A stretch of 63,820 bases of DNA, the filler included, from Stramenopiles sp. TOSAG23-6 (taxonomy: Eukaryota), in assembly GCA_900128565.1 (NCBI GenBank). It is 13 parts of 13 records of this genome, joined end to end, with 100 filler letters (N's around TTAATTAATTAA, not from the genome) between each part and the next. Parts side by side here need not be neighbours in the genome. Positions count along the whole stretch, not along the records: positions 1 to 6,547 come from LT636681.1; positions 6,648 to 13,191 come from LT636682.1; positions 13,292 to 19,831 come from LT636683.1; positions 19,932 to 26,440 come from LT636684.1; positions 26,541 to 33,038 come from LT636685.1; positions 33,139 to 39,625 come from LT636686.1; positions 39,726 to 46,209 come from LT636687.1; positions 46,310 to 52,793 come from LT636688.1; 5 more parts are not named here. One strand, 5' to 3'. The notes beneath the pieces are model-generated. The model saw only the letters and a program-made list of their open reading frames with translations. It was not told the origin of the DNA and made no database searches. Shown here piece by piece: positions 1-61,140 of this stretch. The number at the start of each line of letters is the position of its first letter. Position 1 is the stretch's first letter. Position numbers and translations under genes: made by a program.

Positions 1-52
1 TACGAAATTTTGTACCTAACGATTTTTTTTGAAATATTTTTCCAAAATACAT
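1..52 (+). other. Stereotyped non-canonical intron, 3' part (ends ...CCAAAATAC-AT)
   Basis: TACGAAATTTTGTACCTAAC core plus GAAATATTTTTCCAAAATAC at the contig start, running directly into the VPS11 frame. Confidence 0.75.
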
Positions 53-2176
53 GTTCTAGCATCTGTTGGAGCTCTTACAAATGAAGGTACAGAACTGTCT
101 ACCTATAATAATATAAATAGTGGTCGTTATCTATTAGTTGGTGGTGATCACGTAGCTATATATGATCTTGTAAATAGATTTATTGCTTTTCATATGAACC
201 TAGGAAAAGTGACACAGTCATCAATGAATGAAGAAAGTCATACTATTTCATTTGCAGTTAATGTAAGTTTATGGAATGGTCGTGTTATAATGCTTACATC
301 TACAAATCAGATGTGGGCACTGCAGGAGAAAAGTACTAATTTGAAACTTGAATACTTATTCAAAAAGAATATGTATTCATTAGCTTTATCAATATTGGAA
401 AATGAATCCTTGATGCTTGCTAATAGTCCTTTTATTGAAGATGCAAATATGTTAGACAGTCTACGGCGTTCTATTAATGATGTCCATAGAATGTTTGGTG
501 ACCATTTATATAAACGTGGCGACTTCAAAGCGTCAATGTCTCAATATATTTTAACTATTGGGTATCTAGAGCCATCATATGTTATAGATAGATTTCTGGG
601 CTCAACAGCAAAAATGTCTTTATTAACAAAGTATACAGAAGAATTATATCTATATCATTCAAGTGTTGAACACACTGCTTTGTTATTAAGTTGTTATATT
701 AAAACACGTGATGATGATGAATTAAGACGTTTTATTCGACGGGAGGGGAAATGGAAAATACGAGGTGATGGTATAGAAGCTGTCGTATCTAATTATGATG
801 TAGCTGTGGCCATAAAAACACTTCGAGAACATGAATATTACGATGAAGCTTTATTTCTTGCCGATAGACATCATAAACATCAATTACATATACAGATACA
901 ACTTGAAGATCTTTCATGTCATGGTGATGCATTAGAATATATATCTAGACTTTCTTTTGATTCAGCAAATGCAGCGATGATGAAATATGGAAAAACACTT
1001 GTGAAAATGATGCCACGACGTGCAAGTGATCTTTTGCAACGATTATGTACTACGTATGCAGCAGATATGAATGATGACTCAGAGGATAATACAGACTCGA
1101 ATGTATTTTGTGAACCAGAAGATTTTTTTCATTGTTTTGCAGACAAACCTGTTGCACTTCAAGAATTTTTACAATTTGTTTTGAAAAAGCGAGGAAGTAA
1201 TATTTCTAGTTCTATTACACGTACTGTTCCTTGGGATACATTACTTGAATTGTTACTGTGTACATGGGAAGATATATCAAAACCATCAGATAATAGTAGT
1301 GATATTGATGATAGCAATGATTTGACCATTAACGTGAAGGGCGATGATAGTCAAGCGCGTAAAGATATTATGGATTTGTTGACAAATCCAGATGCTTGTT
1401 ATGATGTAGATTATGCTTTATGCCTTGTTCAAATTCATGGGTTCGTAGAAGGTCAATTGTTTTTGTTTACAAAGCTTCGATTGTATTCCAGTGTATTAGA
1501 ATTATACACTGATCGTGAAAGTGATGTTGGTATAATACAAATGTGTAAGGAGTATGGTGAAAATGATCCAAATTTGTGGGTACATTTACTGACACATTTA
1601 TCGTCAAAATATTGTAATTCTTCTACGGATTCAACAGAAATATATGAAAAGGAAGAAGAACTGACTGAAGTTCTTGAACATATTGATTCTCATGATCTCA
1701 TACCTGCTATAATGGTACTCAATATTTTATCATCGAATACAAATATACCGGTTCGTGTCGTAAAACCATATCTACTTTTTCGTTTTGAGAGAGAAGATGA
1801 ACAGCTGAATGACGATTTGATGGAAACAAATGAGTTTATCAAAGAATCTGATAGGATGAAAGAGAGAATAAAAATTCTTCAGACTGAGGCACAAATATTT
1901 TCTAATAGAAAATGTGCAAAGACAGGATTTCCATTGGAATTACCATCTGTTCATTTTATGAATGGTAAGTCGTATAATTTAGAAGCAATTGGTGAAGATG
2001 GGCAATGTCCTTCCCTGGGACCTCAGATACAACATGTACACGAAATAAGACAGCAATTAAAACGAAAAGCACAAAAACATGAAAAGTTTTTCGAAGAGTT
2101 AGAAAGTTCAGCGGATGGTTTTGGTAAGATTGCAGAGTATTTTGGTCGAGGGACACTTGATATTATGGGCACTTAA
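53..2176 (+). CDS. VPS11: Vacuolar protein sorting 11 (HOPS/CORVET subunit), 5'-partial
   Basis: HRMFGDHLYKRGDF...QYILTIGYLEPSYVI, clathrin-repeat-like helical region, LPSVHF and the C-terminal FGKIAEYFGRG are characteristic of VPS11. Confidence 0.9.
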   Translation, partial: VLASVGALTNEGTELSTYNNINSGRYLLVGGDHVAIYDLVNRFIAFHMNLGKVTQSSMNEESHTISFAVNVSLWNGRVIMLTSTNQMWALQEKSTNLKLEYLFKKNMYSLALSILENESLMLANSPFIEDANMLDSLRRSINDVHRMFGDHLYKRGDFKASMSQYILTIGYLEPSYVIDRFLGSTAKMSLLTKYTEELYLYHSSVEHTALLLSCYIKTRDDDELRRFIRREGKWKIRGDGIEAVVSNYDVAVAIKTLREHEYYDEALFLADRHHKHQLHIQIQLEDLSCHGDALEYISRLSFDSANAAMMKYGKTLVKMMPRRASDLLQRLCTTYAADMNDDSEDNTDSNVFCEPEDFFHCFADKPVALQEFLQFVLKKRGSNISSSITRTVPWDTLLELLLCTWEDISKPSDNSSDIDDSNDLTINVKGDDSQARKDIMDLLTNPDACYDVDYALCLVQIHGFVEGQLFLFTKLRLYSSVLELYTDRESDVGIIQMCKEYGENDPNLWVHLLTHLSSKYCNSSTDSTEIYEKEEELTEVLEHIDSHDLIPAIMVLNILSSNTNIPVRVVKPYLLFRFEREDEQLNDDLMETNEFIKESDRMKERIKILQTEAQIFSNRKCAKTGFPLELPSVHFMNGKSYNLEAIGEDGQCPSLGPQIQHVHEIRQQLKRKAQKHEKFFEELESSADGFGKIAEYFGRGTLDIMGT

Positions 2177-2600
2177 GTTTTTCTATAGTTTAACTTTTAA
2201 ATAATACAAAACTGCTATTTTTGAGTCAAAAAAATAAAAAATAAAAAGCAAAACTTATGATATATGATTATACATATGATATATTGGGCCAATCCAGAAC
2301 TTTTATTTCTAATTCCAATATAAACAGAAAGCAGATGTTACTGCAATATTGAAAACGGAAATAAAAGCAGCGTCAAAATTTATACCTCCACTATACTAAT
2401 GACGTATACACTGAAATGGTTGTATTTGCAATTTGGCGAAAATACAACACATTTTCCACGACATTGAATAAAACAGATATAAATTTCGTCCTCCTTCGAC
2501 AGAGATTTTTACGAGTTAAATGAGAAACATTCCTATTAAATAATCTTATAAAGAGTTATATATATACAAATGGCTCTCTAAAGGTTTACACACTAGAGCG

Positions 2601-2936
2601 TTATCCGTCTCTCTTCTCCATCTTTGGGCGACGGCGCTCTGGTGGGGAACGATTCTTACGATCTTTAACAGCGCGACCACGGACGATACGGCGATGAACA
2701 GCACAATCAATGCAGTAAGACATCTTGTAGTACATCTTAGGAATCTGGTAGTTCTCGTAAGCAGAAGCTTCTTTAATATCGCGCACAGATGACTGATCAC
2801 AGATGTTGCGGACTTGGAAACGCTTTACAGCCTTATCTTTAGCGACACGGCAACTGCATCCATCACAGTCAAGGAGCTTTCCGACGGAACCGCAGTTCTT
2901 GCGGGATCTTCCATGATTACGGCGTTTGACAGTCAT
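2601..2936 (-). CDS. RPS26: 40S ribosomal protein S26 (eS26), intronless
   Basis: MTVKRRNHGR...KDKAVKRFQVRNI...YCIDCAVHRRIVR signature. Confidence 0.97.
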   Translation of the reverse strand: MTVKRRNHGRSRKNCGSVGKLLDCDGCSCRVAKDKAVKRFQVRNICDQSSVRDIKEASAYENYQIPKMYYKMSYCIDCAVHRRIVRGRAVKDRKNRSPPERRRPKMEKRDG

Positions 2937-3100: not shown

Positions 3101-4420
3101 CTAAATGTCTGGGACCTTCCCACTCCTAAATATCTTCAGAAGCCAATCAGGATGACAAAAACGAACTCTCGGTCGTTTATCAGAAAAAGGAATATATTTA
3201 ATACCCAATCCTCTGAGTACATCTTCTTTTGTACTCAAAGTGATGACGTGAGAGGCATCACAAATATCAGTGACAAACTTTGCTCCAATTTTTTTTTGNT
3301 TTTGTCATCAAGTTATGAACATTTTCCACATTAAATAAAAGTATTCTAGCACCTGAGAGACATCCACTTGGATATAAAGGCTGAATTTTCTGACCACATT
3401 CTTGACATTCGAAAGTCCAATGAACCCAGGGACAAGGATGTGGAAGTTTAAAAAGTGTGTTACATTTTGGACATGTATTGTGAAAAAAACATTTAAAAAA
3501 AATATTTTTTTTAATCCGTTAGGTACAAAATGTCGTACGAAAAAACTTTCAAAAAAAAATAATTTTGAAAATGTACATTTTGTAGAAAAATGCAACGATT
3601 TTTCCTTATCTCCACGAATGGGAAGAGCTGAATGAGACAGAGCATTTTTTTTGTTTCCATCTTCATTATCAGAGTCGTTCTTAACTTTTTGTATAGGAGG
3701 AGACGACATTGGACTTAACAAATTTTGAGTCTCAGACATTGGACTTGACAAATTTTGAGTCTCAGACGATTCATCTGAAACTTTTTGTGGTTCGTTCTTA
3801 TTATTTGTTACGACTATAGGCTCAGGTTCATCTTCAGTATCTGATGCATCACCCTGGTCTGTAATGTCCGTCGAATTAATGGTCTTCAAATTGTTTGAAG
3901 ATTGAGAACTTGAAACAGATGGTGATGTACTAGAGTTCGTCCACATGATGGCTGTGGCTTGAACTTTTGCCATAGCAGCCTCTTCTTTGACTAAACACTT
4001 TTTCAATTGTTCCATTGCAAGATTTTGATTCTGCCGTATGTTCTTTATTTGTACACTCATATGAGCCGCCTTTTGGAAAGAATCTGCAGCATGTATAATA
4101 TCCTCAGTTGTCGATAGTGGATGAACACTAGAACTCAATTGCTTCGCGTAGTCTAAACAATCTCGGAAAGCTTGTCCAGTTTTCTTCCAAATGGTACTAG
4201 CTTTTGCTTCGTCCTCTTTTGCACGAGCCACTTTCTCTTGAGCATTTGCCAATTCCTGAAATGCGGCCATGGCATCCAGCGCACTGGGTGCTCGGACAGT
4301 CAACATATCCTTTTCAAGATGATGAGTGACTGTCTTTTGCTTCTTCCGAGCTTGGGTTTTTGGTTGAATGACATCGTCTAAAAGACGCTTCGTTGGACGA
4401 GACATGTGTGCACATGACAT
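3101..4420 (-). CDS. Coiled-coil/low-complexity protein with C-terminal CxxC..CxxC Zn ribbon and BRCT-like domain (2 exons; probable homopolymer frameshift near the N at 3299)
   Basis: After removing intron 3473-3576 the frame reads STK-CPKC...CQEC...LSGARILLF. After a 1-nt shift in the A-run beside an N it continues KIGAKFVTDICDASHVIT...RFCHPDWLLKIFRSG, a BRCT-like pattern. Confidence 0.65.
3473..3576 (-). other. Non-canonical intron GT..AT (104 nt)
   Basis: AT|GTACATTTT...CGTACGACATTTTGTACCTAAC...CACAATAC-AT|GTCC. Removal restores the Zn ribbon. Confidence 0.8.
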
Positions 4421-4764
4421 TTTATAAATCAAACACAGTGGCACAGTGTATATGTCAGTTTTAATGGGGTAAATAGATATAGACTTGGTAATAATATATT
4501 GTAAAGACGAAAACTAAAAAACTAAAAAGGTACATTGACAAATTCTTCACNAAGNTTTCGAGNAAAAAAAACGNTTTGAGNTTTGNCCGAAACACAATCT
4601 CAAAAATAACCCCGAACCCGAACCCTAGCCTAAAATAGTAGTTAACCGTCCGAATATAACGTCTTTTTGTTTTTATGTTTTTTTACATTTAGTATATACT
4701 ATACATAGTTCTGGCCGGCTTACGCTATTCTCTCCATTCCACACAAACGTTCGAGTCATTTACA

Positions 4765-6458
4765 ATGGCTAAGAAAGGGGGTACAACTACAATTAAGCTG
4801 GATTCTAGTATTGATTACTGCGAAAAAACTGAAGAATATCTCATTGAACATAAAGTGGAAAGTAAAATTAATGATATTTTGAATCGAACTCTACGAGAGC
4901 AACCGGACGACCCAATTGGTTTTATTGGGGCGAAGTTTGCTGATCAAGCTTTAAGTTTAAAAGGTATCCTTAATGTTGATGTTCATACTTCTGTTGATGG
5001 ATATGGTAGACCTGCTGTAACTGCACAATTAAAAACCTCACGGGGTACCTTTGTTGCTTCTGTATGCTGCGCTTCTGTAGAGCAGTCTGCAGTATTAATG
5101 CCTCTTCCTGCAACCAAAGAAGAGGGCAGCAATCTTGATGATGGTAACATTCGACCTACTTCAGCATTTGATTCTGGGGATGTTGATGAAGAAGCCAGTT
5201 GGCCAAGTGTATCTGTTCCTCCTTTTCATCCAAACATGGAAAGGATTGCACGAAAAAGAGCACTAACAGAAGCCATCAATTTTTTTAAGAAGAAAGAGGT
5301 ATTGAGTTCTATACTTGGAAAAGATCCTGAAGCTGATCAAAAAAGCATTGATGATGCTATTACAGATCTAAGGAATGAATATGTAGATGATGAAAGAACC
5401 CGAGTCTCGGAATTTAAGCATGACGAAGATAACGTAGTTGAAGCAAAAAAAACAGCACTTGAAGATGGAAAAGTTTCTGATGGTGAAGAAAAGGGAGATG
5501 ACAATGACAACAACAAGTCTGTACCATTATTTGATTTGTCCATTAAAGGAATCTCAAATGCATATGATACTCTACACAAAAAACAATATGCAATGAACGA
5601 GACTTTAGAGGTAGATCTTATGCTTCGCCATGTTTCCCTTGCTATATCTATTGCTTGCGCAAGAGCTGGTGCTGCTGATAAACAATGTCCACTATATAAG
5701 CATATTGCCTCCCTCGCTGATAAAGCAGATGAAATATATTTACCCGTCCCAGTGGTGGGTGTTATAAACGGTGGCATTTTATCCTCGAGTGTGTTACCAT
5801 TCAAAACTGTATATATTATACCAATGGTTCAAGACTCATTTGCAAATGCAATAAAAGACGCTACCTCTGTCGATTCAAAAGTTCGGGCAGTTGCAAAATC
5901 ATTTGGTACTGTAACTGAATCAGATTGTGGTGCTATTGAAGTTGCGTTTACTTTGACAGAAACATCACAAGATGAAGAATCTGACGGAATTGGTGCATTG
6001 GTCTCTGAGAAGTGTATGGATATTGTATTTAAAGCATTAGTTGAGTGTAATGCACCTGAAGAAGGTGTGTCAAAAGAAGTTGAAGAAAAAGACACCACTG
6101 CGGATGATAATACAGAAAATGCAGAGGAGGAAACAGAAAATGTAGAAGTTGAAGTTGATAAGTTGAAACTTGTTGGGGGCATGAGAATGGCGTTGGGCTG
6201 CTCCGCACAAACATTGTTTTCTCCGCCAACTGAACAAGATATCCGAAGTGGACAAAATTTAAGTGGAAGTTATAATATGGCATATAAAATTGAGACTAAA
6301 GAAGACAAAGAAAATGAAACTATTAATGAAGAAACTCTGGGTAAAATATACAGAAAATATATAGAAAAATACCCAATAGTAATGATTGAGGACGCATTTG
6401 AATCTCAGGGATGGGTTGGCTCTTCAGAAATTGTTGAAGAGTTTGGTAGAGATATCAT
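4765..6458 (+). CDS. Enolase-4-like protein with N-terminal RIIa/Dpy-30-like docking helix, 3'-partial
   Basis: EEYLIEHKV..ILNRTLREQPDDP N-terminus; DGYGRPAV, VSLAISIACARAGAADKQCPLYKHIA, LPVPVVGVINGG and KYPIVMIEDAF are enolase-like, with long acidic inserts. Confidence 0.7.
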
Positions 6459-6547
6459 GTATGTTTTATTTTTTTTCAATTTTTTGTCTACATTTTTTTT
6501 CGTACGAAATTTTGTACCTAACAAATTTAAGTTTTTTTTTTGAAATA
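6459..6547 (+). other. Non-canonical intron family member, truncated at contig end
   Basis: AT|GTATGTTTT...TTTCGTACGAAATTTTGTACCTAAC...TGAAATA. Confidence 0.75.
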
Positions 6548-6647: not shown

Positions 6648-7929
6648 TATTATCATATCTAAATTTTAAAGTGATTCATTCACATCATTTACATTGTAGT
6701 CCATGTTGTATGTCAAATCAATATTTGAAACATATATTGGCTCACATCTTAAGTACAGTATGCTTTGAAATTATAGTCAATGTGTTTGCATTTATTTCGT
6801 GTATACAAATATATATGATTGGACCAGATGTAAATCATAATCATCCTAATGTTATGTATGAAATATATACAGATGAAAATTCATCTAATGCATGGTACAT
6901 TATTGGAATTCTTCTTTGTGTATTTTTCACTTTTGAAGTTATATTAAAAATCTATGCATTTGGATTTCATGTATATTTTCATGACAAAACACATATTTTA
7001 GATACATTGTGTGTTTTGGCATCGTTTGCTTCCTATGCAATGACAATTGGTGATGATGAAAGAGTACTAAATAAGTCAATCGCACTTCAATTTGCTGGAT
7101 ATTTTAGAGTTTTATATAGTATGCGAATTCTAAGACTTGCAAGATCCATATCAGCATTACCATTGACACGTCATCATTTCATGACAATATATAGAATTAT
7201 TCCAGCAATGGGTCGAGCATTATGTGTTTATAGTACTGTACTTTACATATGGAGTGTATTTGCTATGCAATTATTACAAGGTAAGCTCACAGGATATCCA
7301 GTGGATAATGACGATATCTGTAATTCTCATTTGTATCAAAATAGTATAAATTCCAAGACTGCAAAATGGTGTGTGAATCGACGTGGACAAAATTTTGATA
7401 ATTTATTTAATTCTTTATTTTCAATGTTTACAGTAAGTATTCTTGGTTCATGGCCAACTCTCATGAATGCTGCTGAAGTGGCTTTACACAGTGAACTTAT
7501 CGCTCGAACATTTTTCATAAGTTTTCAAATATTTGTTGTAATAACTGCAGTACCTGTACTATCCGGGTATATAATAAGTACATATATTGAAATGTGGGAT
7601 ATGTATGTTTTATTTTTTTTTTTAACAAAAAAATCGAAAGTTTTTTTTCGTACGAAATTTTGTACCTAACAAAAATATTTTACTTTAAAAAATATTTTTC
7701 ACAATACATTACTGCAAGAGAAGGAATTCGTTTACGTGAAAGAGATAATGCTTTAAATGATCAAATATCTACAAGAAAATATTGGTGGAATTGGCTATTT
7801 CAAAAACATAAGGAAGTTGTTCATTGTCCTACTAGAAGTCATTGTGAAATGGAAGGTCATGGAAGTGTCAGAGAAATTAATATTCTTAGAATATACGAAG
7901 AAGTTCATGCAAAATATAATGTGTTTTGA
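6648..7929 (+). CDS. Voltage-gated cation channel-type (Ion_trans) domain, C-terminal fragment, 2 exons
   Basis: FTFEVILKIYAFG, S4-like RVLYSMRILRLARSI, pore NFDNLFNSLFSMFTVSILGSW, S6. Intron 7603-7709 joins WD to ITAREG. Confidence 0.8.
7603..7709 (+). other. Non-canonical intron GT..AT (107 nt; mirror copy at 12130-12236)
   Basis: AT|GTATGTTTT...core...CACAATAC-AT|T is in frame. An in-frame AG also lies 9 nt downstream. Confidence 0.7.
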
Positions 7930-8119
7930 AATAAATGTTTACAATTTTTTTTTGAAATTTTATGGAACAAAACTGTAATTTAAATTGTTGGAGATTTTCG
8001 TCGCGTCGAAGCGATAGTTCCGTTATAAGAAATTCTAATATCTATTCTATATGGCACTATACTAGTACTAGTACGTAGTAGGTACTTTACTATAATCTAT
8101 ATCTTAAAAAATACAGAAA

Positions 8120-9284
8120 ATGAATCCACAATGTGATACCGAGACGCCAACAAACGATGAACCGATAAAAGAGGAAACACTAGAAGAAATCAAGTTGAAA
8201 AGAATAAACACGCGTAAGAAGGAATTTCTTAAATATTTACGAGAGGAGGGTGTAAACAAAAAAGCTGCAGTCAAAGCCGGTAAAATTGCTGCTAAAGCTC
8301 ATAAAAAAGCAGTCGTAATATATGCTAGTTGTACTAAAAAGCTATCAGTGGCTCAGAAAAATAAAGAGCGTAGTGAAAATGAAAACGCCGTTGCTCTTTC
8401 AGCCTACAACAATGCTCTCGAAATTGTCACTCAACTTGAAAAGGAAAAACTTGAATTGGAAGATCCAAAAAAAACTGAAAAGCATAACAAAAAACTAGTT
8501 AAAGCTCAAAAGATTCTTTCAAAGAAAAAAGAAGTATCTTCTCTATGTAAAGAAAACCTTGAAGCAGTGACTGAAGTATACAATAAACAAAAAGAAGAAT
8601 ATGATGAAGCATTGAATGAATCTGTAGCTTCTGCTGGTGAATTGAATGCATATCTTGAATTATCTGGAGAAGCTGAAAAAATTGCATTAAAAACGATAAA
8701 GAAGAGAAAGTCTGAGTATGAAAATTTGAAAGTAAAATTATCAAAATCACAAGCTAAATTAAAAAGTATTGAAAATGAAAAAAACAAATCTGTTGCAGCA
8801 CATCAAGAAGCTTTAAAACAATTGAAAATAACAACAGAAAATAATGATGCAAATAATTCAGAGATTGAACGTCTTCAAGGTCTGATTAGTAGAGGTCAAA
8901 CATTTAAATCTCATAAAATTAAAATCGCTGCTGCAAGAAAAGACGTTGCCGTACGTTTTCAGTATGAATTTCAAATTTTTTTTTTCGTACGAAATTTTGT
9001 ACCTAACAAATTTCGAATNNNNNNNNNNNNNNNNNNCGAAATTTTGTACCTAACAAATTTCGAATTTATTTTTTTTTACAATACATGTACATAAAAAAAA
9101 TATTGAAAAAGCAACATTATTTATTCCAAAAGCTAAAGCAGCAATGGATGCAGTTAATTCTAGATACAAAACTCATAAAAATATTGTAGAAATCATGCAA
9201 AAAGATTTAACTCGAAGTCAACAACTTTTTGAAGAAGCAAAAGCGGAACATCAACGCCTCTCATCATTATTACCTGCATTATAA
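8120..9284 (+). CDS. K/E-rich coiled-coil protein, 2 exons
   Basis: Long heptad-rich ORF. Intron 8951-9086 joins KDVA to VHKKNIEK...LLPAL*. Confidence 0.65.
8951..9086 (+). other. Non-canonical intron GT..AT (contains an N gap)
   Basis: CC|GTACGTTTT...core...TACAATAC-AT|GTA. The next several AGs are out of frame. Confidence 0.75.
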
Positions 9285-13191: not shown

Positions 13192-13721
13192 NNNNNNNNN
13201 NNNNNNNNNNNNNNNNNNNNNNNNNNNNNNNNNNNTTAATTAATTAANNNNNNNNNNNNNNNNNNNNNNNNNNNNNNNNNNNNNNNNNNNNCCGAATTGT
13301 CCGCCGAATTTGCTCCGAAAAAAAAAAAAAAAAAAAAAAAAAATGACGCTTAACGTGAATTGTCGATACGATTATTTGAACGAGAAATTTCAATTTTTTT
13401 TAGCGAAACGAAACCTGCAAATTGCCGAGCTTGTAAAAAAATCGTTAGGTACAAACTTTAGTACGAAAAAATGTAGGTAAAAACAATTTAGGTACTATTA
13501 AGAATATATATTATATATATGGCGCAAGGTACATGTGTCATAATAATCTTGTTGGTTAAATTTTGATTTTTATTTGATTTAAACCAAATGGCAAAACAAT
13601 GTACTGTATGAATATATTACACTCGGTATATACTAAAGGAATAGATATTCATATTCACACACAATTGCTAGAAAGTGTAGTTCTGTGCTCTCTTCCCTAT
13701 CAGTGGCATCTTTTGGGTTAA

Positions 13722-21435: not shown

Positions 21436-21557
21436 TGGAAACTTTATAAAATGGCTTTAACCACAAGTACAAGGTTTCAATTTTTGAAATGAAAAATAAA
21501 ATTTAAATATTTTTTTTGATACGAAATTCCGTACCTAACATTTTTTTTGTCTACTTT

Positions 21558-39725: not shown

Positions 39726-39779
39726 GTACGAAATTTTGTACCTAACGATTTTTTTTTGAAATATTTTTTCACAATACTT
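39726..39779 (+). other. Non-canonical intron, 3' part (..CACAATAC-TT)
   Basis: Core plus 3' motif at the contig start. Confidence 0.7.
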
Positions 39780-40339
39780 GCTTAATGTTTCTCGATCTTG
39801 TCTTGAAGATGATTTGCAAAATTTGAAACGATACAAAATTGATTGGCCATTAATTATGAAACTTACTGAACTTCAGATTATTAATTTATCAGAAGAGAAA
39901 CGGGCCTATTTTTCAAACTTTTTTACTTCTACATTGGTACAACAACTTCTAGACGATGTATGTTTTATTTTTTTTCAATTTAAAATTTATTTTTCGTACG
40001 AAATTTTGTACCTAATGATTTTTTTTGAAATATTTTTCCAAAATACTTGAAAGGCGTTTACGAATGCAAGCAGTTAAATCCGAATACGCTGAACTTGAAA
40101 ATCTTATGGTTCAAGCAATGATTGAAATAGAGAAAGGTACACCACAAGCATTTAAAAAATACTTGAAGAAAATGGTAGAAAAATCCAAACTTAAAAAAAT
40201 AGCGACTCTATATATTCATGATTATGATGATAACGAAATTTGCTCCGATATTGGGATGTGTAGTCCTTCTGAGTTGGAAATTCCAAAGCAACCGTATATT
40301 TGGCCTTGGATGGCACGATTCTTACCTGGTGGGAGGTAA
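39780..40339 (+). CDS. Hypothetical protein C-terminus with a possible saposin-B-like end (EICSDIGMC), 2 exons visible (copy at 46364-46923)
   Basis: Intron 39958-40048 joins QQLLDD to ERRLRMQ. Confidence 0.55.
39958..40048 (+). other. Non-canonical intron GT..TT (91 nt; copy at 46542-46632)
   Basis: AT|GTATGTTTT...core...CCAAAATAC-TT|GAA. The first downstream AG leads to an early stop. Confidence 0.8.
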
Positions 40340-46143: not shown

Positions 46144-46209
46144 ATGTATTTTGAAAAAATATTTCAAAAAAAAAACTTAAATTTGTTAGGTACAAAATTT
46201 CGTACGAAA
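46144..46209 (-). other. Non-canonical intron, 3' part (..TCAAAATAC-AT)
   Basis: Core plus 3' motif at the contig end. Confidence 0.7.
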
Positions 46210-49200: not shown

Positions 49201-52200
49201 ATCCTTTCTTCTCCCGTGGAGGTGCTTTATTTGTAACAACTTCACCACGAGAGTTGCATTCGTTTCTTATTACATCTTCACGAGTTTGCTGAAGTTCCCA
49301 AAGCTTTCGCTGACGCTTATCTTCAAAATGTTTGTACTTCACAACAGCTAATTGCTTCCGCAAAGCAATATTTTTATTTTTTTTATCACTAAATGTGTGT
49401 ATTGCTCGGCGTTGAAGTTCTTCTTTTGAAAACCCACAACGCTCGGCAGCAAATGAAACTCTAGGTGTACCTAGTCGTATAAGAAAATCCTCTTGTTCCT
49501 CAGTAACTCTAGGACGTTTTGATTTCCCCTTCATACCAGCCACGCCATCTCTGGAAGATCTTACCATACTCTTCTATACTGCTTTAATCACCGATTTGTT
49601 TCAGTTTTGCTGAAAGATACAAGATGTTGATTGGATAATAGTACTACCTTCAAAACGAACGTTTCATAAAAAAAAAAACACGAAATATACGATTTTTATT
49701 TTTTCGAAGATGTATTGCCAATATTTAGATTAGTTCTGTCAAATAGGAGAGTCAAATATAGGTTTCATGTAATCTTTACCATAGCATACAATGAGAAGTT
49801 CATTAACCAGCGAATCTGTTGGAACGAGGACATCAATTCCCCAAAGTTTTCCATTGACTTTGTATTGTAAAAAAATATTAAAAAAAAAGAATCCTTAGGT
49901 ACAAAATTTCGTACGAAAAATATTGAAATTTTAAAATGGACAACATACAAATTATCCGTAAATGCTCTTTCATAGTTCTTCCACGGCCCGACAGTTACTG
50001 TGTCTGGAACAATATCGACATGAAGGTCACCTTTATAATCTTGATCACATTGTGAATAAACCCTATCATTAATAGTGTATGGCTCTGTACATGAAAATTT
50101 GATCAATTGTGCTTGAACACCATTATAGTTCAATTTCTCCATATTTTGAACTCTTTTATCATGTATTGTGAAAAATTATTTTTTTTTTTTTTTCGGTAAA
50201 AAAAAAAAAAAAAAAATCGTTAGGTACACAATTTCGTATGAAAAAATAAATTCGAAATTGAAAAGAAAACCTACATATTGCAAATTATTTTCATTATCAG
50301 AACATTTAGATGCATCGCATGTTAATGTTTGACTATATTTTTTCCAAGAATTTAAAACAGTTTCATCTCGTAAATTCACGCGAAGGTCCACATCATCATC
50401 ATGAATAATAGGTTCTCCTCTCTTGAATTCTAATAGAGTTCCATTAGAAAGTGTTTATTGTGAAAAATATTTTTTTTTTTAAAAATATCGTTAGGTACGA
50501 AATTTCATACCAAAAAAAAAAAGATTGAAAATCATCATGAAAACGTACATTACTGGAATATGATTTTTTTTCATTGTAGATGTTATTGCTTTAAGTATTG
50601 CAACTCTATATTGATATACATAGCTATAATTTTCAGGTGTTATTTTTATCTGAGAGTGTTGATATTTATCAGCGATGGGATTTTCATTGTTCTTTTTATC
50701 TTTGATGTCTTCGATATCTTCATTATTTTTTGATATTGTTATTTCTGTTGTAGTAGCATCGCTAGTTGCTTCAATATTATCACCAGTCTTTATATTTTCA
50801 TTATTTGTATTATGCCCTGCTTTATCCTCTTTGATATTACCATCATTCGTTTCAACAATATCCGCAACGTTACTCGCAATAATCTTATCAACGGTCTCAT
50901 TATTATCCGGTGTATAAAGCTCAGGAAATGTTTTATCGTCACTCTTTAAGCTCTTTAACTTTGCTTTGAACCTTGAATTATCTTTTTTATTCTGAGATTT
51001 TACGGGTTTCATTAAATACGTACTGATACGATTAGCCCATACCTCTGATGTATTGTCAAGTTTGAGATAGTCAGAACCAAACCGTTTCCTTGACGACAAA
51101 GTAGCCAAGTTTTTTGCTGTAGAAAAATTGACAGATAAAACAAGTAAAAAGAATTCAAAGAATTGCATTGTTCTTCCAAGCAAATTCTTGTGATTGTGCG
51201 AAAATTAGACGTGTGTACAATTCACCCAAAGTACCACACAGTTGTAGAATATTCTATGTGGTGGTTTATGTTGTTTGACGTTATTTTTGAATTTTTTTGA
51301 AAAATTTTTGAAATCGAAATCGAAATATTTTTCCGAATAGAATACATCCGAAATCGCCTAAAAATGTTTCACAACAACTATATTTACTATTTTATATACA
51401 TGAATACATTGAACATTATAAATCAACATGAATGCCCGAACATAGGCCTTTACCTTGTAAGTAGTTATGGTGAATCGATCTCATTTGAGTTTCAGAAAGT
51501 CCAGAAAGTGAAGCTGATCCCTCGACACATCCTTGGTTCTCAATATCTATGAAAAAGGGCAAATCTATAGGTGTTATTTTTAATTCTTTTTGTAGCCAAT
51601 AAGCAACACTAACATCTTCCAAGGTTCCAATTGCTTTAAGAGTGCCTCTTTGTGCTTTTCTACTCAAAAACTCTACTAAATCATGTGAAAGAATGTAGTG
51701 AGAACCATGGGCAAAAGGAGGGAAAGCTGCTCCATCAAAGTCAGAAAAGGGAACATAATTTCTATGAGATGGTTCGCGCATTGGCCAGACTTTTCGATGA
51801 AATCGTGTTGCCCAAACTTCCCCAAAAAATGCTTTTGATACGGGTGCTCCATTTTCAGGTCGTAGTTGCTTTACAATATTATCAAGTGTGACGTAGACAT
51901 CAGCATCAATCATCAAAACATACTTAAAATTGAAGTGGGAAGTTATATACGCAAAGAATGACACAGTTTTTTGAACTAATGTAAAATAACTATCAATCAC
52001 ATCAATCGAATCTTCTAATAGTAAGTCTCCATATTTAGCTTGTTCCTCTTCAAGTTCTTTCTTTGCTTTATCCTTGTCAGCAAATTTTGTCCAATCAGGT
52101 CGGCCGATGATGAATAAAATTTTTGTAGTACTGTTCGTATGATCACTACCCGATATCCAAGTTTCTCTTGCTGTCATCCGTCTTGACACGGATTTTGCAG

Positions 52201-52893
52201 CGACTTTTATACCTACAATGACATTTACATTTTTTTTCTTTATTTTTCTGAATTCACCAGATGTTGGTGTGTATTGTTTCAAATAAACTGGTTGTTGTTT
52301 GGGTTGGTTAGTGGCAAATTTATCTTTGTCATGATCATTTGTGTAATAGACATCTTTTGGATGAAAGAGCATGGATTGCCCAACAGCAGGTTGGAGTGAA
52401 AAATTGACATGATTTGTTTTACCAATAGCTTCATACAAAATATTACATGGTGCACTACCTAGCATACCTACACAATTATTCTTCTCTTTTGTAGCTTTTT
52501 GATTTGGTCGTATAACTACTCCGGCAGCGGATGTGTCCATTAGAGTTGCAGTCATGGAGTATTTTCCTGTGACCAAGTTTTTTAATTGAACAACTGATGC
52601 AAAAAGACCTTCACACCAACGCCATTCTTTGCCTTTAGGTTCCAACAAATCCGGACCCTTCATTGTGAAACACATCGCAGTAGATTCTTCATTACGTTCG
52701 TTGAAACTTTTAACATCGTCCACCAGAATGTATTTTGAAAAAATATTTCAAAAAAAAAACTTAAATTTGTTAGGTACAAAATTTCGTACGAAANNNNNNN
52801 NNNNNNNNNNNNNNNNNNNNNNNNNNNNNNNNNNNNNTTAATTAATTAANNNNNNNNNNNNNNNNNNNNNNNNNNNNNNNNNNNNNNNNNNNN

Positions 52894-52949
52894 TTTTGTA
52901 CCTAACAAATTTAAGTTTTTTTTTTTTGAAATATTTTTCCAAAATACAT
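52894..52949 (+). other. Non-canonical intron, 3' part (..CCAAAATAC-AT)
   Basis: Followed by xWSISS...EFFIALCLI (EH domain). Confidence 0.7.
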
Positions 52950-55900
52950 TTGGTCCATTTCATCAAAAAAGGAAGCAAATGTTTTATACATCGATGAGTT
53001 TTTTATTGCTCTTTGTCTTATTTCTTGTGCTCAAAATCAACAAAAAGTTGATATTTCAAGTTTATCTTTATCATTAGAGCTACCACCTGCAAAATTTGAA
53101 GGTATTGATTTACCTTTAGGAATTGATCATTCTTTAAAACAACAAACAAAAATAACACCAACAACAAAAACAACAACAACAACAACACCAACAATATTAC
53201 CACCAGCACCACCACCAGCACCAACAACAACAACAACACCAACACCAACAACAACGCCACCAACAAAAACAACAACAACAACAACAACAACACCAACAAA
53301 ACCAGAAACACTACGCCGTGATACATCAGATATTGATGATGTAATGATGCGAATGATTGATTGTTCACCAACTACATCAAAGAAAACATCAGAAGAGGAG
53401 AGTTTAAGTCTTAGTGCATTGAAAATTCGCAAACGATCAAATACAAAATCTATTGATGAGATTGAATCAACGTATTATAGATTATTATTTAATGCTGTTG
53501 ATAAAACGGGTGCTAATGATGAAAAATTAAAGGGTAAAGAAGTCGTTACATTTATGAAAAAATCTGGTATTGATAAAAATGTGTTGAAAGAAATTTGGAT
53601 TTTAGCTGATCAAAATAGAAATTATTATCTTGAATTTAATGAATTTATTATAGCCATGCGATTAATCGCATTAGTGCAATCTAAAATGTCTCTTGATATA
53701 ACAAAAGTATCAAATATAGATACATTTATTGCATTAAATATCCCTCTTGCTCAATTTGAAGGTCATCCTACACCACCAGTCTTACCTGGAAGTCTAAGTC
53801 GTCTGGGTGGAATATATGTTTTATTTTATTTCAATTTCGAATTTATTTTTTTTTTTGGTAAAAAATTTTTGTACCTAACAAATTTTTTTTTTATAGAAAA
53901 TTTTGAAATATTTTTTCAAAATAAATGATTGTCCAAAAAAATAATGATAAAATGTCAGCATTTGATGATATTGATGATATTGATGATAAAATGTCAGGAT
54001 TTAATAGTATTGATGATAAAAATGATAATGATACTAATGATACTAATGAAAACAATGATACTAATGAAAACAATGATACTAATGATAGTAATAAGGATAA
54101 TGATGGTCCACAAGAACAAGTAGAAGATTTATTTTCTACAAATAATATAGAAATCATTTCGAATGATTTAAACCCTAACCCTCATGAAGATGATTCAATA
54201 CACACTAACCCTAATGATTGTATTGAAAAAAATCCTACAATTCCAATTTCTTTATTTAATTCTGGTGATATTGTATTCCGTCTTAATCAACGTAATGTAT
54301 ACCAACCAGCAATTATTTTAAAAGTTCACAAAGATGATCCAACAATTTCAAGTGTTTATTACACAGTACGTGTTGGTACTTCTGATGGTAAAGGTAGAGA
54401 AATTCAAACTGTTTCCGAGAGATTATTTTTTGCAACTTCAATGACTGACGTTCTTATTCAAAAGTATTTTAAAGAATTATCCCAAGTAAATATCTCAAAT
54501 GTTGACATCACAAATGATTCTTCAGCGACAAATACTACAAATACTACAAATACTACAAATATAAATACAAATAATCATCATAATAATACAAATAATAATA
54601 ATACTATAAATACTACTACAAATACTACTACAAATAACGCAATGGTGGGTGGTAAAAATGCTGTAATTTTTTTTTCTCGTTCCAAAATTTTGAAATCAAT
54701 TTTAAGACAAATTTGGAGTATTGTCGATGATCAAAATATTGGACAATTGTCATTTGCACAGTTTACATTAGTCATGCATTTTATTTCTTTGGCACAAAGT
54801 AGTATAAGTGAAACTATACAATGGCCAAATTTAAATCTTTCTAAAGGTTTAGAAATATTATCAAAATATCCAATGCAACCTTGTTTGATGATTTTAACAG
54901 ATGATGAAAATAAACAAAATCAAAATGTACAAAATCAGTATGTAAATGATATTAATACGACTGCATTATTCAATTCTAAAGAATTACAAGATGATAATAA
55001 TAATAATAATAATAATAATATATTACTTAATTCCAAAGAATTACAAGATGATAATAATAATAATAATAATAATATATTACTTAATTCTAAAGAATTACAA
55101 GATGATAATAATAATAATAATATATTACTTAATTCTAAAGAATTACAAGATGATAAAAATTCAGTATTGACAAATACAAAATCTATTGATGAGATTGAAT
55201 CAACGTATTATAGATTATTATTTAATGCTGTTGATAAAACGGGTGCTAATGATGAAAAATTAAAGGGTAAAGAAGTCGTTACATTTATGAAAAAATCTGG
55301 TATTGATAAAAATGTGTTGAAAGAAATTTGGATTTTAGCTGATCAAAATAGAAATTATTATCTTGAATTTAATGAATTTATTATAGCCATGCGATTAATC
55401 GCATTAGTGCAATCTAAAATGTCTCTTGATATAACAAAAGTATCAAATATAGATACATTTATTGCATTAAATATCCCTCTTGCTCAATTTGAAGGTCATC
55501 CTACACCACCAGTCTTACCTAAAATAGATGTTGAAACGACAGTTACAAATGATGATGAATGGGGTGCATTTACAGATGGTACTTTGGATAATGATTTGAT
55601 GATGAATGATACTACTACTACTACTACTAATAATAATAATAATAAAGAAGAAAAAGAAGAAGAAGAAGAAGAATGGGGTGCATTTAAAGATGGTACTTTG
55701 GATAATGATTTGATGATGAATGATAATAATAAAGAAGAAAAAGAAAAAGAAGAAGAAGAAGAATGGGGTGCATTTACAGATGGTACTTTGGATAATGATT
55801 TGATGATGAATGATACTACTACTACTACTACTAATAATAATAATAATAAAGAAGAAAAAGAAGAAGAAGAAGAAGAATGGGGTGCATTTAAAGATGGTAC

Positions 55901-57335
55901 TTTGGATAATGATTTGATGATGAATGATAATAATAAAGAAGAAAAAGAAAAAGAAGAAGAAGAAGAATGGGGTGCATTTACAGATGGTACTTTGGATAAT
56001 GATTTGATGATGAATGATACTACTACTAATAATAAAGAAGAAGAAGAAGAATGGGGTGCATTTACAGATGGTACTTTGGATAATAAAAGTACAGACTTGA
56101 ATGATACTAATAATAATAAAGAAGAAAAAAAAGAAAAAGAAAAAAAAGAAAAAGAAGAATGGGAAGATTTTAATGAAGGAGAATTTGAATTTCCAGAAGG
56201 AAAAGTTCATGATATTTCCTCTACTGATGATGATGATGATAATAAAGAGACTTCATCATTAGGTACGAATATCGATTTATTTAGTGCATTTGATGAGATT
56301 GGATGTAATGCGTATGAAGATTTTAAGGGTAGTGAAATGAAGCGTCCATCTCTAAGCTTGGAAAATTTAAGTGAAGGATTGAGCACTAACCCTAACCCGA
56401 ACATTGATGCAAATCAATTAGATCCTACAGATTCATTACAATCATCAAAATCATCAAAATCATTAAAACGGAAGCCTTCATTGAATATAAATACATCTTT
56501 TGGAAGCTCATTCCTCTCAGATATGTCACATGTATCATCACAAAGTTGTGTATCAATTCCTAGTATAAAATCACCATCATCTCCGTTTGCTGGTGATGAA
56601 TGGTTGAAAGATCCAAATATATGTATGTTTTATTTTTTTTCAATGTTTAGTTTTAGTTTACATTTGTTGTTTTTTTTTTTATAGGAAAAAAAAAATGTTG
56701 TACCTAACAAATTTTTTTAGAATTTTTTTAAAAATATTTTTCCAAAATATATCAATACCAGATAATAAAAGTATTCATTGGCCTATCAAGGGTAATTTTA
56801 CAACAGTTGTAGCTGCATTGCTTTCAACAGGACGTGTTGCTGATGCTGCAGCATGTCAATTACATATAGTCAAACTTGACGAATTATGTATGTTTTAATT
56901 TTTTTTTGTATGAATTTTTTTTTTTTTGGTGAAAAAATTTTGTACCTAACAAATTTAAGTTTTTTTTTTGAAATATTTTTCCAAAATATATCTGTGTTGG
57001 AGCAAGATATTGAAGATGCACGAAATAATGAAGATTTGTCACTCATTGGTCATCTCAAAAAACGAATTGAAATGTTGAAAAAATCATTAGTTAGTGAAGA
57101 TATTCAATCATCTTGGAGATTGTCTGATGATAATTGGAAAGATGAATATGTTACAAATGATGTACATGATGAAAATACAGATAATGTAAATGATGAAAAT
57201 ACAGATAATATGAATGATGAAAATACAGATAATGTAAATGATGAAAATACAGATGATAACAACGAAAACAACAATAACAACAAAAAAGATACAAACAATA
57301 CAAACAATACAAACAATACAAACAATACAAACAAT

Positions 57336-57377
<42 letters not shown>

Positions 57378-58625
57378 CAACAAATATCCGTAAGACTTCC
57401 AAGTAGTATATTACGTATGCGTCAAATATTACGAATTTTATTCAAAAAACAACATATTATGACAAAACGTCCTTGCTTATTATTTATGCGTAGTCATATA
57501 CCACCGAGTTTACCTGTACCTTTTTTTTTTTTTTTTTTTNATACGAAAATTTAAGTTTTTTTTTTTTGGTTTTCATACGAAAATTTGTACCTAACAAAAA
57601 AAAAATCAAATGTTTGAAATATTTTTCAACAATATTTGTCCATCGATTAGATGTAAATACAGCTGTAGAATCCTATTGTAATGCTGCCTTATCATTTCGA
57701 TTAATAACAAGATTATACACTGCTTCTAAAATGTTGGTTTTTTTTGTTTCATTATTATTTTATTATTTTTCACAATTTTTCTACATTTCAAATAATATAT
57801 ATTTGAAATTATTATTTTATTATTTTTCACAATTTTTCTACATTTCAAATAATATATATTTCAATATATATTTCAAATATATATACTTGAATATATTTGT
57901 ATTTGAATATGTTTTATTATTCATAATATTTCAAATGTTTTTAAAATGTATTCAAAATATTTCAAAAATTTTTCCACACACTAAATTTCATCAAAATTTC
58001 TTAAAAATATATTTTTTCATACTACAGGAAACAATATGGTTCAATTTGGATTCAAATAATTCGTGCTGTAATAACAGAAACAAAGCGTGCGATTTCATTA
58101 TTGAATTCTTTAGATTCTGTTGGAGATTTGAATGTAATGAAACAAGCTAAAACAAATGAAAAATATTTGAAATATTGGCGAGGTTTAGCCATGATGTTTA
58201 CTGTATGTAATTTTATTTTAATTACAATCACAAATTCCTTTTGGGAAGAACCCGTGCTTTTAGAAACATTTCGTGTTTTAGAAGATTTATTACAAACGGG
58301 AACCGGGATTCGTATAAATAATGTAGTGAAAACACAAAAAGAATATTATACCGAAAAAGATTTATATTCATATTTTACTTCACTTGAACTTCAATTTTGT
58401 ACAAAATATTGTCATTTAACATTGTTACCTATTCTGAAATTATCAACAACAACAACAACAACATCACCAATAAAAACAACATTATCAACAACAACAACAA
58501 CATCACCAATACATGATTGTGACCAAGTTCATGACATATTTGCTACAATTATAGTAGATGGTAAAGAATATTTTGCTGGTGCAGCAAATTTATGGGTGAA
58601 TTGTGTTGATACAAATCTCCCTTGA
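52950..58625 (+). CDS. Synergin-gamma-like multi-EH-domain AP-1 accessory protein, 5'-partial, at least 6 exons
   Basis: EH domains (LKEIWILADQNRNYYLEFNEFIIAMRLI), repeated acidic EEWGAF motifs resembling gamma-adaptin-ear ligands, and C-terminal YFAGAANLWVNCV. Introns at 53814-53926, 56623-56752, 56888-56991, 57516-57637 and 57733-58027. Confidence 0.7.
53814..53926 (+). other. Family intron with AT..AT termini (113 nt)
   Basis: AT|ATATGTTTT...TTTTGTACCTAAC...TCAAAATAA-AT|GATT is in frame. Confidence 0.7.
55557..56085 (+). repeat. Coding tandem repeat, 6 x EWGAF(T/K)DGTLDN
   Basis: gaatggggtgcattta(c/a)agatggtactttggataat recurs six times. Confidence 0.9.
56623..56752 (+). other. Non-canonical intron GT..AT (130 nt)
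   Basis: AT|GTATGTTTT...GTACCTAAC...CCAAAATAT-AT|CA is in frame. An in-frame CAG also lies 9 nt downstream. Confidence 0.65.
56888..56991 (+). other. Non-canonical intron GT..AT (104 nt)
   Basis: AT|GTATGTTTT...GTACCTAAC...CCAAAATAT-AT|CT is in frame. Confidence 0.75.
57516..57637 (+). other. Non-canonical intron GT..TT (122 nt)
   Basis: CT|GTACCTTTT...CATACGAAAATTTGTACCTAAC...CAACAATAT-TT|GTC. The next three AGs are out of frame. Confidence 0.75.
57733..58027 (+). other. Canonical GT-AG intron (295 nt) without the core motif
   Basis: AT|GTTGGT...CTACAG|G gives SKM-KQYGSIWIQ, in frame with the last exon. Confidence 0.75.
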
Positions 58626-58784
58626 AAAACGAATAAAATTAAAAAATTAAATTGTGTTTTAATCTCCCTTGAAAAACCTCTAATGATGATATCAAACATT
58701 TAAAATTTTAAATTTTCTTTAATTTCTTCAGTTTCAAGAAATCCTACTAACCCTACAAAATTTTAAATTTTACACACAAAATTT

Positions 58785-59249: not shown

Positions 59250-59533
59250 ATTTATTTTGTGAAAATATTTCAAAACACAAAAATTAAGGTTAGGTATGAA
59301 ATGTCGTATATGAAAATATAAGCAAATTTCGTGTTGATCATGTTCGTGCTGAACAATCTCAATCNNNNNNNNNNNNNNNNNNNNNNNNNNNNNNNNNNNN
59401 NNNNNNNNTTAATTAATTAANNNNNNNNNNNNNNNNNNNNNNNNNNNNNNNNNNNNNNNNNNNNTTGTTAGGTACAAAATTTCGTACGAAAAAAAAATTC
59501 GATTTTTTTGTAAAAAAAAAAATTAAAACATAC

Positions 59534-60426
59534 ACTTCCCTTTCTAACTTTTTCAAAGACTTTTTCAACATTTTTTCCATTCCTTTTTGGACACCTTCCA
59601 TTTCTTCAATTTCTTCTTGGATTTCTTCTAAAATTTCATCATCATCGATTTCAGTATCCTCCAAAGAAGAGGAAATGTTATCTGTAGAATCGGTAATTGT
59701 TCTATCTAATGCAGTCAAACTTGATTTTTCTTTCACTTTTTCTTTTTTTTGTGAAATTGAAGTTAATTTGGATGATTCAGATTCTTCTGAAAGTTTCGCC
59801 ATATTCTCAGCAGCAATAACTTGAGCACCATGTATTTTGGAAAAATATTTCAAAATTTTTTTTACCAAAAAAAAAAAAAATTGTTAGATAAAAAANTTTT
59901 TTACCNAAAAAAAAAAAATATTTAGCTAAATTTTGGTTTAAAAAAAAATAAAACATACATGGGAACCAACCATCAATACTAAAGCATATGAGCCCAACCC
60001 TCCTGTAAATGGCTTATTTAATTTTCTTGTATATAAAAGCTGTTTTAAAATAAGAACTAAAGGCCTTAATGCTGGGTATTGAATCATTAACTGTTTAACT
60101 AATGCAACACTTTGAATGCCCATATGAATATTTTTTGTATTATTTCGTGTATTATTTTCTGTGGAATCAAATGTTATATCAACTTCTATATACCTTATTT
60201 CGCTATTTTTTTCATTATTACCTTTTTCATTTTTATCATTATTATTTTTATTATTATAAATAGCCGTAAATTTGATTACTGGTACATGAGAGGTGATAAT
60301 AACTTGAATGCTTTCTTTCTGAACCCAATTAAGGGTCTCTAAAATATTTGCTAAAATATAAACTCTTTTATGAATTGTATTATTATTATTATTATTATTA
60401 TTATTTTTAATACCACAAATAACAAC
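59534..60426 (-). CDS. TRF4/PAPD5-like nucleotidyltransferase, internal fragment. Family introns at 60427-60479, 59830-59958 and 59465-59533
   Basis: VPVIKF, VDITFD, LRPLVLILKQLLYTRKLNKPFTGGLGSYALVLMV. Confidence 0.85.
59830..59958 (-). other. Non-canonical intron GT..AT (129 nt)
   Basis: CAT|GTATGTTTT...ATCTAAC...CCAAAATAC-AT|GGT joins VGSH to GAQVIA. Confidence 0.75.
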
Positions 60427-61140
60427 ATGTATTTTGGAAAAATATTTCAAAAAAAATTCTAAAAAATTTGTTAGGTACANNNNNNNNNNNNNNNNNNNNN
60501 NNNNNNNNNNNNNNNNNNNNNNNTTAATTAATTAANNNNNNNNNNNNNNNNNNNNNNNNNNNNNNNNNNNNNNNNNNNNCTTCTCCCGCTAAAGTAGNTC
60601 TTGAGAATAGATTTTCTCTACAANAAGATGTAAAATTTAGTCTGTTTAGAATACTAAAAGAAACAAACCCAAATAAAAAGTATGCATGAGACCAAAACAA
60701 TGTCATTCATTGTATCAAGGGGAGCTTCATTTGTTTATTCTTGAGGTATTTATCATTATACAGAGAATTTCATAGCTATTCATTCTACTAACATGAAACA
60801 TTAACACTAATGAGTTTGTTATGTTTAAGCTAAAAAGAATATGATGCATAAAAATTACTGCAAGTGATGTAGAACAAACGAAATGTATATGCTTCACAGA
60901 CAAAAACACAATCCATTAAAAACAACAAAGAAATCAACAATAATAAGATATTATATACTATATATATTCAACAATGCTTAGTAACAAAACTTTTTACTTT
61001 TATACTCTTGACGATACAGTATTTTCAAAATGGTCAACATGAGCAAACTTTTAAAAGCAACATTATTTGCAGGACTTGCAGTCCAAACTTTGGCGGGGTA
61101 ACTTTTCTTTACTTTTTTATACTTGATGATGTTGAGTATA

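Follow-up and report, generated by a model that had tools for sequence, protein, structure and literature searches.

Putative introner-like elements with mostly non-AG 3' ends in the genes of a MAST-3-labelled stramenopile

The genes and the element family

The DNA considered here (the window) is a stretch of 63,820 bases from the assembly of Stramenopiles sp. TOSAG23-6 (GCA_900128565.1). It is made up of 13 contigs with spacers of the form N44-TTAATTAATTAA-N44 between them, and its genes carry copies of one short, intron-like element, most of which end in a dinucleotide other than AG. GC content across the window ranges from 24 to 41%. The long open reading frames (ORFs), read in the standard genetic code, specify ordinary eukaryotic proteins: VPS11, an enolase-like protein, an actin-related protein, eS26, a CLASP/TOG protein, an ion channel, an ankyrin/PHD protein, a galactosyltransferase, an EH-domain protein and a VPS9-domain protein. 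Rfam and tRNA scans of the window returned no RNA genes, and no intron-like interruptions were seen in its long ORFs besides the element copies. An earlier note on this DNA had called the element a dominant class of introns, a description that holds for this window only.

The organism could be placed through the VPS11 ORF, which matches EukProt record P0001, whose label contains MAST3, at 552 of 557 residues apart from five gaps; the next matches share about 35% identity and come from scattered eukaryotes. As judged from this comparison, the organism belongs to the stramenopiles, with a MAST-3-type label, and is not a euglenozoan. A diplonemid origin was considered because single-cell diplonemid genomes have been reported with predicted non-canonical introns, which in hemistasiids amount to 97% of introns (PMC12621601, PMC6221363; these and the other papers cited here are drawn on in excerpt). 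It was rejected on the match of the VPS11 ORF to the MAST3-labelled record. When eS26 was compared with solved structures, no signal of use for placing the taxon emerged.

Part of the window is redundant. In a self-comparison, the contig at 39726-46209 recurs as 46310-52793 with 100% identity over 6.5 kb; the contig at 6648-13191 is an inverted palindrome, in which 6648-8963 equals 13191-10876 reversed; and the contig at 33139-39625 has inverted ends of 1.1 kb. Duplicate contigs and inverted duplications of this kind are typical of amplified single-cell DNA, amplification chimeras and assembly redundancy, and they were removed before copies of the element were counted.

A 9-nt core of the element, allowing at most one mismatch, occurs 42 times in the window against 4.9 expected, a number reached in none of 100 shuffles. 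A profile built from 12 copies gave 41 matches at E<=1, duplicates included, and these are present on every gene-rich, element-bearing contig. The non-redundant set comprises 25 copies, of which 16 are complete, seven retain only the 3' end and two only the 5' end; four partial or weak copies (26192-, 21509+, 13471- and 17023+) were excluded from the counts. The elements are 89-176 nt long, and all 25 lie in the sense orientation relative to the flanking long ORFs, as the earlier note had observed for its approximately 25 copies of the same length range. Pairwise identity among copies averages 0.68 (range 0.55-0.81), against 0.48 for shuffled copies, and the homology spans the whole element, extending beyond the splice-like signals; in the profile alignment the 5' part falls into recognisable subfamilies. 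The host genes are unrelated to each other (VPS11, enolase-like, ion-channel, CLASP, ankyrin/PHD, galactosyltransferase, EH-domain and VPS9 genes, among others), and the presence of one sequence family, in about 25 copies, as intron-like segments of many unrelated genes is the hallmark of introners. Copies are interrupted by seven non-redundant contig ends and two scaffold gaps, as is expected where a high-copy repeat breaks the assembly. Whole-length homology together with these breaks constitutes, at the level of sequence, the signature of an introner-like mobile family, going beyond what shared splice signals would leave. In such a repeat family the conserved core need not be a functional signal. 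The conservation extends beyond the motifs and core described in the earlier note, over the whole element.

Reading frame, splice-like signals and 3' ends

The boundaries of the putative introns were defined from the element alignment alone, starting with the initial G of GTAYGT and ending 3 nt beyond AATA, and the longest upstream ORF was then joined to the longest downstream ORF after removal of the element. The reading frame was restored in 16 of 16 complete copies (15, plus one tested separately), where chance would restore it in one third, and the insertions are found in phase 0 (six copies), phase 1 (five) and phase 2 (five). The continuity that the earlier note had reported for this cut in all three phases was thus confirmed. 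Reading through the element meets an in-frame stop in 12 of 15 copies. Protein homology marks the same edges. The Enolase_C match stops at residue 588 with the donor in codon 589, the CLASP_N match stops at residue 282 with the donor in codon 282, the VPS9 match runs from residue 53 where the first exon codon is 54, and for six of seven full-length VPS11 homologues the alignment starts with the first or second residue that follows a truncated element, at base 53. Since the edges of the domain matches coincide with the edges of the elements, the genes are interrupted in the middle of conserved domains and at element boundaries, which supports the view that the elements truly interrupt these genes and have to be removed. 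The uniform sense orientation and the complete frame restoration are strong, if indirect, indications that this removal would take place in RNA.

The elements are also short and rich in AT, they have tiny inverted ends and are flanked by short direct repeats, and the source DNA contains chimeric inversions. These features would fit removal at the DNA level, like that of the internal eliminated sequences of ciliates, or else broken genes that hold either recent insertions left unspliced or artefacts of amplification. Explanations of this kind are extremely unlikely, given that the exclusive sense orientation is not expected from DNA excision or random insertion and departs from the orientation independence of the ciliate sequences, that long intact ORFs in the standard code lie on both sides of elements whose removal restored the frame in every case, and that the copies differ from each other to an extent not expected of one artefact repeated.

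The 5' end of the element has G1 in 16 of 17 copies, T2, A3 and T6 in 17 of 17, and G5 in 14 of 17, which by sequence amounts to a textbook, near-perfect U2-type donor; GTAYGT was scored as present in 16 of 17 5' ends. A branch-like CTAAC lies at a variable distance of 33-59 nt upstream of the element end, and the profile alignment displays a U-rich tract ahead of the last ten bases. A small hairpin (GUACGA / UUGUAC with a 4-nt loop, e.g. at 7650-7667) reaches into the beginning of the conserved core, directly 5' of CTAAC; four of eight single-sequence folds contain it, with compatible base changes in one copy, and it may be a remnant of the element's own structure.

In contrast, introns of the minor (U12) spliceosome have the donor consensus [AG]TATCCTT, and their branch motif lies near the 3' end. 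A shift of the boundaries by 2 nt would make them AT..AC, to be cut by the minor spliceosome or as U2-type AT-AC introns, and this shift would be invisible in the mRNA wherever the exon ends in AT and the intron in ACAT. Such a configuration is possible in five of the 16 complete copies (7603, 50274, 3576, 21838 and 59958), and CCTAAC loosely resembles the general U12 branch consensus. True AT..AC boundaries are nevertheless very unlikely: the shift is impossible in the other 11 copies, the donor GTAYGTTTT has no ATCCTT box, and CTAAC lies much farther from the intron end than the branch motif of U12 introns does.

Excision outside the spliceosome was weighed on the folding of the element. In euglenids and hemistasiid diplonemids, nonconventional introns have been described (PMC6221363, PMC12621601, PMC11282704), and excision of this kind would be the work of some unknown machinery that takes out the element together with one direct repeat, using the paired intron ends as a guide. 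The present elements resemble those introns in their non-AG ends and in the short direct repeats at their boundaries. Stable end pairing of the euglenid type was not found, however: the consensus structure of 11 aligned copies contains 0 predicted pairs, and the ends were closed in only two of eight single-sequence folds, by a helix of 4-6 bp (z-scores +0.4 to -3.1). Euglenid-type introns are further recognised by the absence of a U1-complementary donor and of a pyrimidine tract, whereas here the near-perfect donor, CTAAC and the U-rich tract, which nonconventional introns lack (PMC11282704), are all in place, and the host is a stramenopile rather than a euglenozoan. Nonconventional excision is accordingly rated as unlikely.

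The 3' ends depart from the canonical pattern. Among 23 visible ends the last two bases are AT in 17, TT in three, and AA, AC and AG in one each, counts identical to those of the earlier note. Non-AG ends are therefore found in 15 of 16 complete copies and in 22 of 23 visible ends, so that the elements differ from introners with GT-AG or otherwise known splice sites. Boundary shifts that would leave the mRNA unchanged, computed for each copy, yield no AG end in any non-AG copy; moving the acceptor by -3 or -6 nt is compatible with the logic of the ORFs, and those positions are non-AG too. Unlike the variable distance to CTAAC, the offset of the effective 3' boundary from the element's 3' motif is fixed, so that any positional cut would be measured from the 3' motif.

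Canonical splicing at other sites would reduce the stereotyped boundaries to a coincidence of the repeat, with a nearby AG as the true acceptor. The first AG past the nominal end is in frame in four of the 15 non-AG complete copies, in one case 72 nt away; the earlier note had counted three, and its judgement that this is near the chance rate stands. In addition, the public model P0001 has GT-AG introns only. Against this, the first downstream AG breaks the frame in the other 11 copies, in three copies none of the next four AGs is in frame, an AG lies between CTAAC and the nominal end in three of 13 copies (the AG-ending copy not counted), and VPS11 and VPS9 homology starts at the nominal acceptor. 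Nor does P0001 lend much weight to nearby AGs. The model (window 224-2173, +) starts at an internal Met downstream of the element and drops five in-frame GT-AG segments of 39, 51, 75, 57 and 57 nt from the continuous VPS11 ORF, and at least four of the five correspond to residues that VPS11 homologues keep. It looks like the output of a predictor limited to GT-AG introns, and as an unreliable model it provides no evidence on splicing. The use of nearby AGs is thus highly improbable.

The identity of the terminal bases appears to follow the exon that precedes them. Upstream exons end with A at -2 in 13 of 17 copies and T at -1 in 14 of 17, far above background, and AT is the commonest dinucleotide both of exon ends and of intron ends. 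Over 15 copies, the repeat shared by exon end and intron end has a mean length of 2.53 nt, whereas mismatched pairs average 1.40 nt (permutation p 0.002). The last two intron nucleotides equal the last two of the exon in nine of 15 copies, including the AG/AG case, in which the sole AG-ending copy follows an exon that also ends in AG; likewise, the exons that precede copies with TAT or AAT at their end themselves finish in TAT or AAT. On these matches, the non-AG end appears to be a product of the target site, either a short target duplication or insertion microhomology, with 3' terminal nucleotides taken from a duplicated target as described for Fritillaria. Either origin would explain why the frame is restored when the element plus one repeat is removed. 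Because the last two to three nucleotides co-vary with the exon end, the terminal dinucleotide is probably target-derived and not read as a motif. Of the earlier proposal of AG-independent splicing with an acceptor set by motif and position, the positional part is favoured by the predominance of non-AG ends, the fixed offset from the 3' motif and the frame-breaking downstream AGs; the varying dinucleotide itself probably does not belong to the motif.

Individual copies and their surroundings

In front of the VPS11 exon, a 3' part is cut by the contig start at 1-52 (+; counted as 12+), and VPS11 homology runs from base 53. On the same contig a complete copy lies at 3473-3576 (-; GT..AT, phase 1), and a 5' part cut by the contig end lies at 6459-6547 (+), where the Enolase_C match ends one codon before the element. 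The enolase-like ORF itself (4693-6458, +) is a continuous exon of 588 codons that matches only positions 107-131 of Enolase_N and 117-177 of Enolase_C, and long stretches of it are unmatched; its product could be a strongly divergent member of the enolase family or could carry large insertions. In the ion-transport gene, whose upstream exon contains Pfam Ion_trans, a complete copy at 7603-7709 (+; GT..AT, phase 2) has an identical inverted twin at about 12236-12130. Only about 190 nt (7927-8121) separate the stop of the ion-channel gene from the ATG of the next gene. The complete copy at 8951-9086 (+; GT..AT, phase 0) contains an internal N gap and has a shortened twin on the minus strand at 10888-10826.

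Within the CLASP_N/TOG domain, the complete copy at 20732-20824 (+; GT..AT, phase 1) shares a 9-nt direct repeat with the exon end. The longest element, at 21663-21838 (-; 176 nt, GT..AT, phase 0), is complete and compound, being a tandem or nested pair. The sole complete AG-ending copy lies at 28366-28457 (-), and a 3' part in the ankyrin/PHD gene, at 30288-30340 (-), stands beside a scaffold gap. Three partial or degenerate copies, at 26114-26192 (-), 21509-21569 (+) and 13434-13471 (-), are located outside clear coding exons, in untranslated regions (UTRs) or intergenic DNA; one of these does not start with GTA and has TATAG as its end. The three could be either copies in decay or introns of UTRs.

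On the duplicated contig, a 3' part ending in TT lies at the contig start, at 39726-39777 (+; counted as 39738+; duplicate 46310-46361). Complete copies follow at 39958-40048 (+; GT..TT, phase 0; duplicate 46542-46632), 41603-41691 (-; GT..AT, phase 2; duplicate 48187-48275), 43276-43364 (-; GT..AA, phase 2), through which the frame is also open, 43577-43690 (-; GT..AT, phase 0; duplicate 50161-50274) and 43869-43964 (-; GT..AC, phase 2; duplicate 50453-50548), the last with unambiguous boundaries. Upstream of the galactosyltransferase exon, a 3' part at the contig end occupies 46145-46209 (-; counted as 46193-; duplicate 52729-52793).

The EH-domain gene contains a 3' part at the contig start, at 52894-52948 (+; counted as 52898+), and a complete copy at 53814-53926 (+; AT..AT, phase 2), the only one that starts with AT in place of GT. 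Its long exon bears a 350-bp exact direct repeat (53438-53787 and 55171-55520), and a tandem-like block with 80-99% identity is found in the EH-domain exon at 55551-56159; the repeats could be real protein repeats or an assembly artefact. Further complete copies are located at 56623-56752 (+; GT..AT, phase 1), at 56888-56991 (+; GT..AT, phase 1) and at 57516-57637 (+; GT..TT, phase 0); the first of the three and its exon end have an 8-nt direct repeat in common. In the VPS9 gene, a copy at 59250-59319 (-) has a degenerate 5' end and retains only its 3' end, at whose edge the VPS9 domain match begins. A 5' part lies at a contig start (59465-59533, -) and a 3' part at a contig end (60428-60479, -; counted as 60478-), and the complete copy at 59830-59958 (-; GT..AT, phase 0) contains two internal Ns.

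Origin, mechanism and biological meaning

Taken together, these elements are probably real introns derived from one introner-like, non-autonomous mobile element family in a MAST-3-labelled marine stramenopile, removed by the major spliceosome with a 3' site set by position. The element would carry its own U2-type donor (GTAYGT), a branch-like CTAAC and a U-rich tract, and no AG acceptor. It would insert into coding DNA, preferably after (A/T)AT, and a short direct repeat of the target, specific to each copy, would then flank it. In the pre-mRNA, the segment removed would run from the first G of the element to just past the 3' repeat, 3 nt after AATA, and its loss would restore the original reading frame exactly. 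As the removed segment would end just past the target repeat, the terminal dinucleotide would be whatever the target was, which is mostly AT. The cut would most likely be made by the major spliceosome, at a 3' site chosen by its position from the 3' motif and not by AG. A more far-reaching version is a real possibility, if short of probable: in this lineage of uncultured marine stramenopiles essentially all introns may be copies of one recently expanded mobile element, and the spliceosome may have been freed of the 3' AG, cutting at a distance from the 3' motif so that the duplicated 2-3 nt become the intron end.

Several observations weigh against this account. Splicing is deduced here from DNA sequence, and the amplification chimeras in the source DNA entail a low assembly quality. 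In four of 15 copies the exon and the intron have no terminal nucleotide in common, repeat lengths range over 0-9 nt, unlike a fixed-length target-site duplication, and terminal inverted repeats reach at most about 4 nt (GTAT..ATAC). The intron-end pair G(+1)/U(-1) is not known from any spliceosome. Neither a transposase nor an autonomous partner turned up in the window. Copies outside it were not found in k-mer and pattern scans of three DNA collections: an exact 22-mer of the element had no match among viral contigs or genome contigs; a 21-mer gave 14 matches in genome contigs, all of them bacterial chance matches; and a gapped pattern, too loose to discriminate, hit at least 116 loci in metagenome contigs, none of those listed fitting the element profile beyond the pattern itself. 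These scans thus supplied neither empty sites nor independent confirmation of the elements in DNA. Protein searches likewise yielded no transcript-derived protein crossing a junction, neither for a 174-aa internal exon compared with proteins of 95-305 aa nor for the CLASP exon compared with longer proteins, and the 898-aa EH exon matched only distant EH-domain relatives in a representative library. Three seawater metatranscriptome runs contain 5-8% of the sampled words, which is not evidence of expression.

Among the known systems, the precedent closest in logic is the tunicate Fritillaria borealis. Its introns are mostly non-canonical, have AC or AT as frequent ends and derive from miniature inverted-repeat transposable elements (MITEs) (Henriet 2019, as cited in PMC11282704; PMC13326754); a duplicated exonic TAC supplies the 3' site, removal is ascribed to the U2-type spliceosome (PMC11282704), and divergent U2AF paralogues bind the non-AG ends (PMC11282704, PMC13326754). 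The two cases thus have in common a proposed mobile origin, an escape from the AG rule, AT or AC ends and a 3' site drawn from the duplicated target. They differ in that the introns of Fritillaria mostly start with AG, whereas the donor here is a textbook GTAYGT, and in that a single family, stereotyped over its whole length, is found in a stramenopile host. The introners of Micromonas pusilla and Aureococcus anophagefferens, the hosts including one stramenopile, are similar in being multi-copy, near-identical short introns in unrelated genes, with one splice site given by the element and the other by target duplication (Huff 2016, as cited in PMC7789003 and PMC11282704). Their motifs are canonical GT-AG and their direct and inverted repeats of constant length (PMC7789003), in contrast to the 15 of 16 non-AG ends, repeats of 0-9 nt and inverted ends of about 4 nt seen here.

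Amoebophrya, another marine protist, has repeated non-canonical introns on which standard annotation pipelines fail, and direct repeats of 3-5 nt overlap their boundaries, which is counted as a further likeness (PMC7789003). It differs by inverted repeats of 8-20 nt, hairpins that join the ends, highly variable dinucleotides at both ends and an undetectable U1 (PMC7789003); the present elements have no end pairing and a conserved GT donor. Euglenid and hemistasiid introns share the non-AG ends, the short direct repeats at junctions and a suspected transposon origin, but have strong end pairing and no U1-complementary donor or pyrimidine tract, the opposite of what is seen here (PMC6221363, PMC12621601). 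To the euglenids, Amoebophrya and Fritillaria, named as precedents in the earlier note, the hemistasiid diplonemids should be added (PMC12621601).

A search of the literature on introns of MAST and other stramenopiles, supplements excluded, yielded no description of introns of this kind, and the element's motif was matched there by primers only; the excerpted text of PMC5778133, again apart from its supplement, mentions introns twice, in the methods, and never with regard to splice types. Surveys of introners take annotated introns as their starting point and set aside families whose splice sites are unfamiliar, unless RNA supports them (PMC12130899), so that a family like this one would be missed. 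To the earlier note the present analysis adds the MAST-3-labelled stramenopile host, the introner-like homology over the whole length and the match of intron ends to the target.

If correct, the proposed mechanism would bear both on the organism and on splicing in general. Few signals of pre-mRNA splicing are as conserved as the 3' AG, and exceptions on a genome-wide scale are rare. The present family would relax the acceptor rule alone, with a textbook donor and branch motif, and would thereby isolate how the second catalytic step and the choice of the 3' site work without AG. On the more far-reaching version, the AG rule would have been escaped independently for a fourth time, and in the cleanest way, because donor and branch site would still be canonical and the acceptor rule alone would have changed. 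The family would also provide a stramenopile example of mobile elements making introns whose end is supplied by the insertion site. For the organism itself, gene models that assume GT-AG introns appear to be wrong, as judged from the one public model compared, P0001; on the same single comparison, systematic mis-modelling of its proteome is possible, and public proteomes and phylogenomic matrices built from such assemblies may be affected.

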